Shown piece by piece: positions 13,040 through 35,359 of a DNA stretch of 64,000 nucleotides (its first letter is position 1; each line of letters opens with the position of its first letter). The position numbers and the translations under genes are program-made. The stretch is from sequence record PZ347775.1; one strand, written 5' to 3'. Below the pieces are notes generated by a model. It searched no databases, was not told the origin of the DNA, and was given only the letters and a program-made list of their open reading frames with translations. This DNA is from a phage.

Positions 13040-13510
13040 TTAATCATGTTTCCACACCCCATCGGTATTTGACCAAAGTCGCTGATTATCTGAACCTCGC
13101 CACAGCTTTTTGGTCGGAAGATTTTTCTCATACTTCCCATCAATAATAACATCAACATATTTAAGCATTTCTAGTTGTTTAATATCTTCAAACTTATATC
13201 CTGTCCACAACCAAATGCTTTTATTCGGATAAAGATTTTTTACTGTTTGAACAATGCAATGAACAACATCTCGGTTATCTGGATAGAGAGGGTCTCCTCC
13301 AGTTATAGTTAATCCTTCTATATAATCATTATTCAAACATTTAATTAATTGTTCTAGTGTTTCACCAGTGAATGGAACGCCATTTCTAGCATTCCATGTT
13401 GATTTATTATAACACCCTTCACATTTATGCAAACAACCTGTAACGAAAAGAACGACCCTGCATCCAGGGCCATTCACAAAATCACAGGGATAAAATCTAT
13501 CGTAATTCAT
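13040..13510 (-). CDS. nrdG: anaerobic ribonucleotide reductase activase NrdG (radical SAM)
   Basis: 156 aa with cysteine cluster (CLHKCEGC); start overlaps nrdD stop. Confidence 0.88.
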   Translation of the reverse strand: MNYDRFYPCDFVNGPGCRVVLFVTGCLHKCEGCYNKSTWNARNGVPFTGETLEQLIKCLNNDYIEGLTITGGDPLYPDNRDVVHCIVQTVKNLYPNKSIWLWTGYKFEDIKQLEMLKYVDVIIDGKYEKNLPTKKLWRGSDNQRLWSNTDGVWKHD

Positions 13511-15324
13511 TGGTGTTTAACCCTATGCATGATTTCTTTATTTTTGCCGAGATTAAATCCGCGTTCATTCGGATTTCCCAAATAACCACAAGTTCTTCTT
13601 ATTGTGTTCATCTTTTTAGGATCAGTTTCTCCACAAATAGAACAAACAAATCCGTTTTCAGTAGGAGTCATTTCATGGGTACTTCCACACGTAAAACATT
13701 TATCTACTGGCATGTTAACACCAAAATAATCTAAATGTTGTGCAGCATAATCCCATACAGCCTCAAGACCTTTTAGGTTATTTTTCATATCAGGAAGTTC
13801 AACATAAGAAATGTGACCGCCTGTCGCAATGAAATGATATGGGGCTTCGCGAGAAATCTTTTCAAACGGAGTAATATTTTCTTCTACTGAAACGTGGAAA
13901 CTATTAGTGTACCAGCCTTTATCAGTAACATCTTTTACACTTCCATATTTCTCAGTATCAAGTTTACAGAAGCGATAGCACAGGTTTTCAGCAGGAGTAG
14001 AATACAAGCTAAAAGCAAAACCAGTTCTTTCAGTCCACTGCTTAAGACGAGCATTCATTTTAGTTAAAATTTCCTGTCCAATATCACGCCCGACAAGAAT
14101 ATTCAATTCGTGAATACCAATGTATCCTAAGGACACTGAACTTCTACCGTTTTTAAATAACTCAATTATATCGTCATCAGGTTTAAGACGAACCCCGAAT
14201 GCACCTTCTTGGTAAAGAATAGGAGCAACAGTAGCTTTAACTCCTTTTAAGGAACTAATTCTACACATCAATGCTTCAAAACATAAATCCATTCTCTCAT
14301 TGAACAATTCGGCAAATTTCTGTTCATTGAACTGTGTTCCAATATAAGAATCTAGTGCAATGCGAGGAAGATTCAGTGTTACAACACCAAGATTATTACG
14401 TCCATCAAGAATTTCATTACCAGTCGAATCTTTCCATACACCCAAGAAACTACGACAACCCATTGGAGAAACAGGAATAGATGAACCGGTGATAGCTTTA
14501 TTGTTCTTAGCCGAAATGATGTCAGGATACATTCTTTTACTTGCACACTCTAGAGCAAGCTGCTTAATATCATAGTTCGGATCGTCTTTATAAAGATTAA
14601 CACCTTCTTCAACGAACATAACAAGTTTAGGGAAAATAGGAGTTATCCCATCACGACCAAGGCCTTTAATACGATTTTTCAGAATTGCTTTCTGAATCAT
14701 TCGTTCAGTCCAGTCAGTTCCCGTACCAAATGTAATTGTTACAAAAGGCGTTTGTCCGTTTGAACTAAAGAGAGTATTTACTTCATATTCATAAGCTTGG
14801 AATGCATCGTATACGTCTTTTTCTGTTTTAGATTGGGCATAATTCAACGCATCAGCGATTTGCCATTTTTCTGCATCCTCAATATGTTTTGCATAGGTGC
14901 GTTTAACATAAGGAGAAAGGACTTTATCTACATTCGCAAAAGTCGTTCCACCATATTGATGGGAAGCAACCTGTGCAGTAATTTGTGCCATAATTGCAGT
15001 AGCAACACCGATTGATTTAGGAGTTTCAATCTGTGCATTACCGAGCTTAAATCCGTTCTCAAGCATTCCTTTTAAATCTACTAAACAGCAATTAGTAAAT
15101 GGAAGAGCAGGGGAATAATCAATATCATGGAAATGAATAATTCCGCTTTCATGCGCTTTCATAATAAAAGACGGGACCATATTTTTGGCAATGTGTTTAG
15201 ACACAATACCAGCCATAAGGTCCCGTTGAGTTGGAAAAACACGAGAATCTTTATTAGCATTCTCGTTTAAAAGGTCTTTATTAGTTTTATGAATCAATCC
15301 TTCAATTTCTTTTTCAATTGTCAT
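13507..15324 (-). CDS. nrdD: anaerobic ribonucleotide reductase NrdD, uninterrupted
   Basis: 605 aa; C-terminal zinc ribbon and glycyl-radical motif RRTCGYLG; one continuous ORF. Confidence 0.92.
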   Translation of the reverse strand: MTIEKEIEGLIHKTNKDLLNENANKDSRVFPTQRDLMAGIVSKHIAKNMVPSFIMKAHESGIIHFHDIDYSPALPFTNCCLVDLKGMLENGFKLGNAQIETPKSIGVATAIMAQITAQVASHQYGGTTFANVDKVLSPYVKRTYAKHIEDAEKWQIADALNYAQSKTEKDVYDAFQAYEYEVNTLFSSNGQTPFVTITFGTGTDWTERMIQKAILKNRIKGLGRDGITPIFPKLVMFVEEGVNLYKDDPNYDIKQLALECASKRMYPDIISAKNNKAITGSSIPVSPMGCRSFLGVWKDSTGNEILDGRNNLGVVTLNLPRIALDSYIGTQFNEQKFAELFNERMDLCFEALMCRISSLKGVKATVAPILYQEGAFGVRLKPDDDIIELFKNGRSSVSLGYIGIHELNILVGRDIGQEILTKMNARLKQWTERTGFAFSLYSTPAENLCYRFCKLDTEKYGSVKDVTDKGWYTNSFHVSVEENITPFEKISREAPYHFIATGGHISYVELPDMKNNLKGLEAVWDYAAQHLDYFGVNMPVDKCFTCGSTHEMTPTENGFVCSICGETDPKKMNTIRRTCGYLGNPNERGFNLGKNKEIMHRVKHQ

Positions 15325-33316: not shown

Positions 33317-33637
33317 TTATTCTTTAAATCTAATCAATTTATTCATAGACTTTGAAACTTCTGCACGAACCTCATGTAGGTTTTTAAGCTGTTCAAGACG
33401 TTGCTCATAGTAAGCAATTTCATCTTCTTCGAGACAGTCCTGTGAATCTTCTTTAAGATAACGTGCATAATCCTGGAAAGCTTTACGGACTACTTCCTGG
33501 AAGTCATCAAGACTTTGAATTTTCTTAGGAGCAACAGATACACGACGAGGGGCAGTATAATACTCATAACCAAACCCTGCGCTTAATTGAGCCATTAATA
33601 TTTTTCCTCTGGTTGAAACACAGCACGACAAGCCCAC
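33317..33637 (-). CDS. hypothetical protein (vs.3 position)
   Basis: 106 aa ORF. Confidence 0.45.
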
Positions 33638-33861
33638 ATACTAGCTTCTTTGAGTTTCGTTTTAGCAATAGTTAACTGATCGATGCTTTCAGCATAATTC
33701 TTCGCGAATTCATAGTCTTCACAATTATTTAGCACTTCCCAGAATTCGTCGTATAAAGCATCAAAGATAAGTCCTAAACGAACTTCAGCGTCTTTGATTG
33801 CATTCACTTTACCGATTTTCTCTTCAGTATGGGGCTTATAACCTTTAATGTCTTCAATCAT
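33595..33861 (-). CDS. vs.4: probable Acb2, anti-CBASS cyclic-oligonucleotide sponge (vs.4 position)
   Basis: 88 aa ORF at the vs.4 position downstream of regB; from memory T4 vs.4 encodes Acb2; sequence recall is approximate. Confidence 0.6.
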
Positions 33862-34075
33862 ATTCTACTTCCTCACCAGTACATAAATCATATTCAACTA
33901 AACGAATAGGTTCATGAATGCCATATCCTTGAACAGAAATTTCTGTCGTAGGATAAATTCCACTAATATCACCCATATTCCACGCTTCATTAAATTGCTG
34001 TTCGCCTGAATTACTAAACCACTCGGCGAAAGCATTTAGCACATCTTTAGAACCTTCAATAATTATCTTTGCCAT
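33854..34075 (-). CDS. hypothetical small protein (vs.5 position)
   Basis: 73 aa ORF. Confidence 0.4.
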   Translation of the reverse strand: MAKIIIEGSKDVLNAFAEWFSNSGEQQFNEAWNMGDISGIYPTTEISVQGYGIHEPIRLVEYDLCTGEEVEYD

Positions 34076-34449
34076 TACAGACTCTCGGTAAAGGTACGAG
34101 CAATAACGTCGCGCTGCTGTTCCGGAGTCAGAGAGTTAAAGCGAACTGCATATCCGGATACACGGATGGTCAGCTGCGGATATTTTTCCGGATGCTTAAC
34201 TGCATCTTCCAGAGTTTCGCGACGCAGAACGTTAACGTTCAGGTGTTGACCACCTTCAATTTTAACTGTAGGTTGTGGTTCAATTTCAATTTCACGGGCA
34301 TGCAAACCGTAGAAAATTTCCGGGTCTACAAAAGAGTCCTCTTTAAAAGTTTTAGAGACAATAATTCTTGCTTGAATACCGTCTTCAAAATAAATAGTAC
34401 CTTTATGCGTGCCTTCAAGAATTTGATATGCTTTCATATAACCTCTCAA
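34075..34449 (-). CDS. autonomous glycyl-radical cofactor, GrcA/YfiD-like (T4 Y06I-type)
   Basis: C-terminal [61 protein letters not shown] is essentially the E. coli GrcA glycyl-radical domain (RVSGYAV loop). Confidence 0.85.
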
Positions 34450-34826
34450 TTAGAAAATAAATTTATCCAAGATTGCTCTTTAATTAAAAATGGCTCAGAA
34501 TCATATGCCATTAAACTTTGGGTGATTAGTCCTTTAAAAGGCCCATCAATAAATTCCATGGTAAAATATGGAATTTTATTCATTAATCTTGCATTAGGAG
34601 CAGTGCACAAAACTCTGCATCCTTTGAATACGCCTTTTTGTAATTTGTATTGCTTAGGGTAAAATTCGCTCAAGACGTTGTTATTTGCCAAAATTTCAAA
34701 ATGATTCACCAATTTATTTTTAATAGTTTTTGGCGAAAAATAAAGATATTCGAAAAGTTGCGTGTCTGTCATCATTGCATTCCGATTACGAAAAACTGTG
34801 GACGAGTAATACCACCAATGCAACAT
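34446..34826 (-). CDS. hypothetical protein
   Basis: 126 aa ORF, start overlaps neighbour. Confidence 0.4.
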
Positions 34827-35359
34827 TTACTATTGCAGCAGTAATGTACAGTGTCAATATGGACACTATAAATTTTATCCATATCGGGAGCTTTAACAGG
34901 CTCATCGATTATATACAAAATCCGCGAAAGCGATAAACCTCTGAACTTGCTTCCTTTATTACCGATAAAACTACGGACAGAATCGGTAAATAAGCGGAAT
35001 CGAATATCATCGCCAGAATAACGAGAAAATTCTTTTTTAATGTGGCCTGCAGAAATTTTAGCGTAAGCTGAAGTATTAGAAAGAACAATAACTGTTCCAC
35101 CATCATACAGCCAATTAGCAGCAAAGTTAGTCACAGCAGTTGATTTACCGGATTGTCTGCCACCATCTAATCGAAGTGTGCAATACTGCTTGAGTAAGTC
35201 TTCAAATGGTGGGATATAATCGTTTTTACAAATTTCTTCTACTCTAGCATCAGAATGGTGTGTAAAAGCATTCATCAGGGATAGATAAGGACCAGTTAAA
35301 AATGTTCTCATTTTATTCTCTCTAAATTTGGGCCATTCCATGGCGCATGAATTGTCCAT
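34772..35359 (-). CDS. hypothetical protein with P-loop-like motifs
   Basis: GGRQSGKST (Walker A-like) and ILYIIDEP (Walker B-like); true start uncertain. Confidence 0.45.
   Translation of the reverse strand: MDNSCAMEWPKFRENKMRTFLTGPYLSLMNAFTHHSDARVEEICKNDYIPPFEDLLKQYCTLRLDGGRQSGKSTAVTNFAANWLYDGGTVIVLSNTSAYAKISAGHIKKEFSRYSGDDIRFRLFTDSVRSFIGNKGSKFRGLSLSRILYIIDEPVKAPDMDKIYSVHIDTVHYCCNSKCCIGGITRPQFFVIGMQ

Follow-up and report, generated by a model that had tools for sequence, protein, structure and literature searches.

Why does a virulent gut phage carry a small protein whose second half copies a repair protein of its host, and how did that half come to match the host's so closely? The locus lies in a window of 64,000 nucleotides (sequence record PZ347775.1; the whole stretch of DNA that was analysed) from a Tequatrovirus, where the 10 kb surrounding the gene match many T4-like phages of Escherichia and Shigella at 95-97% identity. 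In T4, its orthologue is vs.6 (Y06I; NP_049730), which is already characterised and widely annotated. It is found in the order vs.7-vs.6-vs.5 in the tk-regB-e early region of the Tevenvirinae, as in T4, KIT03 and RB69, and shares with its T4 counterpart a length of 363 nt, the vs.7 and vs.5 neighbours, and the overlapping stop and start codons. The two proteins are identical at 119 of 120 residues when aligned, the single difference being R73H. Vs.6 also matches the profile phrog_1209 (E 1.2e-62) with residues 1-120 on profile positions 1-121, its phage-type N-terminal half included; this match and the synteny make it a full member of that phage family, Vs.6/Y06I. As a gene, vs.6 is ordinary: it is annotated in hundreds of T4-like genomes, it was found in 789 phage records at megablast sensitivity, and the exact protein is already public on 187 contigs, where it is named autonomous glycyl radical cofactor.

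The sole domain matched in Vs.6 is Pfam Gly_radical (E 2.8e-18), and the protein matches the NMR structure of E. coli GrcA (PDB 6owr) with an E value of 8.6e-42. A first-pass annotation of this DNA had described the C-terminal ~60 residues as almost identical to GrcA, including the RVSGYAV radical loop. The alignment bears this out: residues 61-120 agree with GrcA 68-127 at all 60 positions, and the loop, at residues 92-98, keeps its radical glycine (Gly95). Over residues 22-60, only 14 of 40 positions (~35%) are identical to GrcA 28-67, and this N-terminal half is 7 residues shorter. Because that half is both divergent and shorter, Vs.6 scores 153.3 bits against the NCBIfam GrcA equivalog TIGR04365, under the cutoff of 170; despite such a score, phage Vs.6 orthologues are named GrcA in RefSeq. 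The core of Vs.6 also aligns with the C-terminus of PflB (residues 697-759; PDB 1h16), with 49 of 63 residues identical (78%; E 5e-26). PflB is a 759-residue enzyme with an identical RVSGYAV loop, and a spare part takes the place of its C-terminus. E. coli GrcA, like Vs.6, is a stand-alone protein of ~14 kDa with the same radical-glycine loop, but the genes differ in setting: grcA sits between ung and eamB, whereas vs.6 belongs to an AT-rich early cluster of a virulent phage. Vs.6 fits the structural definition of a GrcA-type autonomous glycyl-radical cofactor: it is small, consists of one domain, has the radical loop and ends like PflB.

The extent of the gene, which had been given as 34075-34449, needs one correction. 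The end at 34075 stands, while position 34449 is an upstream in-frame TTG overlapping the vs.7 stop codon; we place the start at the ATG at 34437 instead, because GAGAGG precedes that codon at a 4-nt spacing (Table 1). The T4, KIT03 and RB69 orthologues are annotated as genes of the same length, matching this start. At the other end, the TAA of vs.6 overlaps the vs.5 start (TAATG), and a GAGAG in the 3' tail of vs.6 is probably the vs.5 ribosome-binding site. A promoter and terminator scan around vs.6 returned sites no commoner than in shuffled sequence.

Table 1. Features of the vs.6 locus and of the anaerobic ribonucleotide reductase genes in the window
Feature	Position	Strand	Remarks
vs.6 (Y06I) CDS	34075..34437	-	120 aa + stop; 363-nt gene, 13.8 kDa product; autonomous glycyl-radical cofactor
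Shine-Dalgarno-like GAGAGG	34442..34447	-	4 nt 5' of the vs.6 ATG; overlaps the vs.7 stop TGA (34446-34448)
Phage-type 5' half, codons 1-60	34258..34437	-	AT-rich; phage-lineage; distant kin of the GrcA N-terminal half
Host-identical core, codons 61-116 (EGGQHLN...ARTF)	34090..34257	-	Glycyl-radical domain proper; putative gene-conversion tract from E. coli grcA
Gly95 codon GGA, radical glycine	34153..34155	-	Equivalent to GrcA Gly102 and PflB Gly734
Phage-type 3' tail, codons 117-120 (T-E-S-L) + TAA	34075..34089	-	Synonymous differences from the host concentrated here
nrdD, anaerobic ribonucleotide reductase	13507..15324	-	Pfam NRDD, E 4.7e-171
nrdG, NrdD activase (radical SAM)	13040..13510	-	Pfam Fer4_12 (E 1.7e-48) and Radical_SAM

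Several observations concern the surroundings of the gene and its annotation elsewhere. Two genes downstream of vs.6, the T4 vs.4 homologue (33595-33861, minus strand) contains a Pfam Acb2/Tad1 hairpin domain (E 1e-19), the family of nucleotide sponges with which phages counter CBASS and Thoeris signalling. Upstream of vs.7, in the vs.8 position, a 195-aa ORF (34772-35359, minus strand) has no Pfam match at E <= 0.001; the gene in this position measures 660 nt in T4, 543 nt in KIT03 and 504 nt in RB69. In the record of Escherichia phage T2 (AP018813.1, 61057-61430), features for a tail sheath, a baseplate tail tube initiator and a tail tube lie under the vs.6 match. Tail features cannot fit the vs.6 locus, and the annotation of that record looks shifted.

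The biochemistry of the protein is the settled part of the question. Andorfer et al. 2021 (PMC8683613) and a 2026 review (PMC13450708), both citing Wagner et al. 2001, name T4 Y06I and E. coli YfiD/GrcA as the only two validated spare-part proteins and formate-lyases as the only enzymes for which spare parts have been validated. According to these papers, PFL-AE installs a glycyl radical on both ~14 kDa proteins, and their complex with O2-cleaved PFL is catalytically active again (Wagner et al. 2001, via PMC8683613 and PMC13450708). The C-terminal half of YfiD (residues 61-127) is described as duplicating the PflB C-terminus, while binding to cleaved PFL and efficient activation depend on its N-terminal half (PMC8683613). 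The first-pass annotation had proposed that a phage-borne spare radical domain could rescue oxygen-damaged host pyruvate formate-lyase; T4 Y06I, nearly identical to Vs.6, is reported to do so in the same sources. By analogy with the T4 protein, this reading of vs.6 is supported as correct but already known, its biochemistry having been published in 2001. In the open-access literature we found no documentation of an in vivo role of vs.6 during infection.

If the behaviour of the T4 and E. coli proteins carries over, oxygen would cleave active host PFL at Gly734 and Vs.6 would bind the cleaved enzyme. The host activase PflA (PFL-AE) would then put a radical on Gly95, and the C-terminal domain of Vs.6 would substitute for the lost PflB C-terminus, restoring the output of acetyl-CoA and formate under transient oxygen. 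For the phage, the benefit could lie in keeping up the supply of energy, acetyl-CoA and formate. PFL makes formate, and formate reduces class III ribonucleotide reductase; the repaired enzyme could in this way provide the reductant for the class III reductase NrdD that the phage encodes. Vs.6 may nevertheless behave unlike GrcA, because its divergent and shorter N-terminal half corresponds to the part of YfiD on which binding to cleaved PFL and efficient activation depend.

The presence of nrdD and nrdG in the same phage, which had been pointed out from the letters alone and which the Pfam matches confirm (Table 1), invites a more direct connection. The first-pass annotation had allowed that the spare domain might rescue NrdD as well, so that Vs.6 would be a spare part for the phage reductase, activated by NrdG, or would serve both PFL and NrdD. 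The co-occurrence of the three genes suits this idea, as does the fact that Pfam Gly_radical matches both NrdD and Vs.6, and a role in nucleotide metabolism was speculated by Nolan et al. 2006. A comparison of the two proteins tells strongly against it, however. BLASTP of Vs.6 against the NrdD of the same phage gives E = 2.6, which is not significant, and leaves the radical loops unaligned; the NrdD loop reads RRTCGYLG and follows a Cys-rich segment, whereas the core of Vs.6, with its RVSGYAV loop, is entirely identical to GrcA and 78% identical to the PflB C-terminus. The restriction of validated spare parts to formate-lyases, as given in PMC13450708 and PMC8683613, points the same way. We regard direct service to NrdD as very improbable and have rejected it for lack of any similarity between the two proteins, which on this comparison are unrelated in their radical domains beyond the level of the Pfam superfamily. 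An indirect link to NrdD through formate is more plausible than its direct repair.

The second question, how the radical domain came to be so like that of the host, has an answer at the DNA level. A codon alignment of vs.6 with E. coli grcA breaks sharply at codon E61. Downstream of the break, the core is identical to the grcA allele of E. coli UMNK88 at 167 of 168 nt, with an exact run of 131 nt; upstream, the 5' half is identical to E. coli grcA at 80 of 180 nt (44%, about chance), and the difference between the two parts is extreme (Fisher p ~1e-35). The last 12 nt agree with the UMNK88 allele at 9 positions. GC content follows the same division, at 0.50 in the core and 0.34 in the 5' half, against 0.35 for the whole window. 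The 5' half has its relatives among phages, being identical to Klebsiella phage orthologues at 128-130 of 180 nt. The one nucleotide by which the core departs from the E. coli allele is a synonymous change, and so is each of the four differences in the final 180 nt. Against the other enterobacterial genera compared, no more than 154 of 168 core positions are identical.

The near-identity to the host had earlier been put down to recent acquisition or strong constraint, and these comparisons separate the two: recent exchange of DNA stands, while constraint fails, as the identity extends to synonymous sites and to the alleles of particular host species. The radical-domain protein is, to be sure, highly conserved across Enterobacterales, as expected if purifying selection alone had held an ancient phage gene to the GrcA sequence with no recent transfer of DNA. 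Protein constraint cannot explain the identity, however, because it reaches synonymous sites. The core differs from the E. coli allele only synonymously, bacterial genera whose protein sequence is the same as that of E. coli differ from it at 14-40 of 180 nt, the GC content of the core is that of the host rather than of the phage, and Klebsiella phages carry Klebsiella synonymous states (see below). On the synonymous-site and GC data we rejected constraint as the only cause, which we consider hardly credible at all.

The direction of transfer is from host to phage, because the bacterial gene diverges evenly along its length and the phage core has the GC content of the host. E. coli and Citrobacter grcA, for example, are 88% identical in the 5' part and 92% identical in the core. 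Transfer from phage to host was rejected on the even divergence of bacterial grcA in both halves and on the host-like GC of the phage core in both host groups examined. As a possible donor, pflB was rejected as well, with ~80% DNA identity to the phage core against 99% for grcA.

Among the E. coli phages, the affinity of the core is specifically with Escherichia. Their cores are identical to Escherichia alleles at 173-177 of 180 nt; the best other genus reaches 162-166 of 180, whether compared with the phage cores or with E. coli itself. Of 5,426 complete E. coli genomes, at least 2,419 have a grcA that agrees with the T4 core at 175 of 176 nt, and the cores of three T4-like contigs from IMG/VR are identical at 168 of 168 nt to Escherichia-type alleles from metagenomes. 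The resemblance extends to polymorphisms within the host species. E. coli grcA varies at a Gly codon (GGA or GGT) and at an Ile codon (ATT or ATC), the first two alleles compared being GGA...ATT and GGT...ATC. T4, P8 and RB69 carry GGT...ATC, the majority haplotype, and RB18 carries GGT...ATT; the phage studied here has GGA...ATT, the minority haplotype in E. coli, and its core differs from that of T4 at four nucleotides. Of 652 phage records, none has the exact 73-nt stretch with its GGA...ATT haplotype, which 97 E. coli genomes do carry. From P8, its nearest relative, the phage differs at three core sites, two of which (GGA and ATT) match the linked minority haplotype of E. coli. Across 12 phages and 16 Escherichia alleles, 7 of the 13 variable phage core sites share both site and base with an Escherichia polymorphism (binomial p ~5e-4), a result that holds when restricted to third-codon positions; part of this sharing at third positions could reflect parallel mutation.

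The T4-like phages of Klebsiella offer a second comparison. The metagenome loci L096-L099 encode GRCA_KLEP7, of the K. pneumoniae complex. Used as a query, the GRCA_KLEP7 gene matches 106 phage records at 95-99% identity (97-98% in the rows listed) from grcA nt 202 to ~370, nearly all of them Klebsiella T4-like phages of the genus Jiaodavirus, and the left junction at nt 202 is common to the Klebsiella and the E. coli phages. Compared with alleles of the K. pneumoniae complex, the core of phage Nispero is identical at 166 of 168 nt (to L099) and that of SmallBear at 163 of 168 (to L096). Both have cores with a Klebsiella-like GC content of 0.58 beside 5' halves at 0.36. The Nispero core holds only states seen in two K. 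pneumoniae-complex alleles, as a recombinant of both. Between E. coli and Klebsiella phages, the cores are identical at 144-147 of 168 nt, and between the two hosts, E. coli and K. pneumoniae, at 147-149 of 168; the phage 5' halves are 71% identical, as expected of two phage genera. One Klebsiella phage, KPV15 (NC_055715; locus L176, 222-583), has its vs.6 orthologue split into CDS 222-371 and 428-583 where sister phages have an intact gene of 363 nt; either the gene is a frameshifted pseudogene or the record contains a sequencing error.

Host-tracking is documented, from these comparisons, for two host genera only, Escherichia and Klebsiella. Two other host genera served as negative controls: Salmonella grcA as a query found no phage copy above 90% identity, and Enterobacter grcA found none above 95%, with a single unlisted phage record at 90-95%. 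Thirty IMG/VR loci yielded only further E. coli-type cores and lineages with no close host in our allele panel. The Pseudotevenvirus, RB49-like, Aeromonas, T5-like and several uncultivated groups of phages have no host-identical core, their identity to panel alleles being ~68-85%; the panel contains no grcA of Cronobacter, Citrobacter freundii, Vibrio or Aeromonas. Either these lineages were not recently converted, or their host alleles lie outside the panel.

The GrcA-like genes of these other phages, namely T5-like Tequintavirus and relatives, RB49-like Krischvirus, Pseudotevenvirus and the Aeromonas phages, likewise encode small proteins with the same radical loop, and show that spare parts as a strategy are common in virulent phages of enterobacteria. 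In the T5-like, RB49-like and Aeromonas phages, among them the T5-like AKFV33 (L009, 1320-1688) and the RB49-like kvi (L010, 1267-1683), the cores are ~68-78% identical in DNA to the host alleles compared. The labels given to such genes in T5-like, RB49-like and Aeromonas phages are inconsistent and include acetyltransferase-related, 2-ketobutyrate formate-lyase, pyruvate formate-lyase and ribonucleotide reductase subunit. In the IMG/VR T4-like contig L189 (481-660), the vs.6 homologue is three codons short, ending in RTFT and a stop where its relatives read RTFTKEM.

The pattern in the Escherichia and Klebsiella phages is best read as repeated import of the radical-domain half of vs.6 by gene conversion from host to phage, with the phage N-terminal half retained. 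Codons 1-60 would be the phage lineage's own, old version of the N-terminal half of GrcA, and codons 61-116 host grcA DNA, copied in more than once, presumably by homologous recombination. T4-type recombination could act on fragments of host DNA wherever the homology is long enough, and a host-identical patch, once present, would be self-reinforcing. The 168-nt core is probably a standing target of such conversion, overwritten between fixed junctions by the grcA allele of the infected Escherichia or Klebsiella while the gene keeps its own N-terminal half and 3' tail. E. coli phages would take up Escherichia alleles and Klebsiella phages Klebsiella alleles, so that a phage would always carry the radical domain of its current host. 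In open-access full text, we found no published description of a mosaic structure or of host-tracking in vs.6.

A simpler history would have the core acquired once, or once per host genus, and spread afterwards only from phage to phage, with host and phage no longer exchanging DNA. When T-even phages co-infect a cell they recombine freely, and one segment of the locus looks like such recombination, involving the entire gene. The T4 group and RB69, a Mosigvirus, share an island of high identity (34075-34560 in the window, 1400-1871 in locus L003) that takes in the 3' end of vs.7 and the whole of vs.6; even the 5' half of vs.6 is 91% identical there and the core 97%, against ~70% in the flanking vs.7, vs.5 and vs.4. 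The island points to transfer of the entire gene between phages, or to its unusual conservation, and exchange of this kind could explain part of the pattern within the E. coli phages. As the full explanation we find it unlikely. At least two donors are needed, Escherichia and Klebsiella; the phage variants coincide with host polymorphisms at the 7 of 13 sites counted above in the E. coli group; the Nispero core is made up only of states from two K. pneumoniae-complex alleles; and two of the three core differences from P8 fall on a linked minority haplotype of the host. Recurrent conversion from the host accounts for each of these.

The retention of the phage N-terminal half bears on a further possibility, namely that Vs.6 acts as a takeover factor or decoy, for instance by titrating PFL-AE or by binding intact or cleaved PFL with altered regulation, and so redirects fermentation. 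The half in question shares only 14 of 40 aligned residues with GrcA and is shorter than its counterpart, the corresponding region of YfiD controls binding to cleaved PFL and activation (PMC8683613), and its having been kept through every conversion event suggests selection for something specific to the phage. Yet T4 Y06I is reported, in PMC8683613 and PMC13450708, to reconstitute the catalytic centre of O2-fragmented PFL as YfiD does, and an exact copy of the host's catalytic half suits a functional replacement rather than an inhibitor. We consider the decoy role improbable. The explanation as a whole, that vs.6 encodes a PFL spare part of the T4 type and is a mosaic into which host grcA has been imported recurrently, appears to us likely.

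Exchange of this sort has a precedent. Host and phage copies of cyanophage psbA reportedly undergo intragenic recombination (Zeidner et al. 2005; Sullivan et al. 2006); that gene, like vs.6, is a metabolic gene held by both a host and a virulent phage, with segments exchanged between the two gene pools. The cyanophage case differs in gene, host and phage group, and vs.6 is distinguished by the exchange of one fixed segment with the same junctions and by its retained 5' half. Because recombination at cyanophage psbA is known, conversion of vs.6 would add a new case to a known type of process and would not establish another type.

The wider meaning of vs.6 is that a fermentation enzyme of the host has a repair part in virulent gut phages, which fits with their possession of NrdD and NrdG and points to infection at oxic-anoxic boundaries. 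With a catalytic half whose synonymous sites follow the host species and even particular host alleles, the gene offers a simple natural system for measuring recombination from host to virulent phage, and its mosaic structure allows one to ask what the phage N-terminal half does beyond that of the host. If recurrent conversion is true, a strictly virulent phage would be drawing, through homologous recombination, on the pool of alleles present in its host, and the N-terminal half that it retains would carry a phage-specific function.
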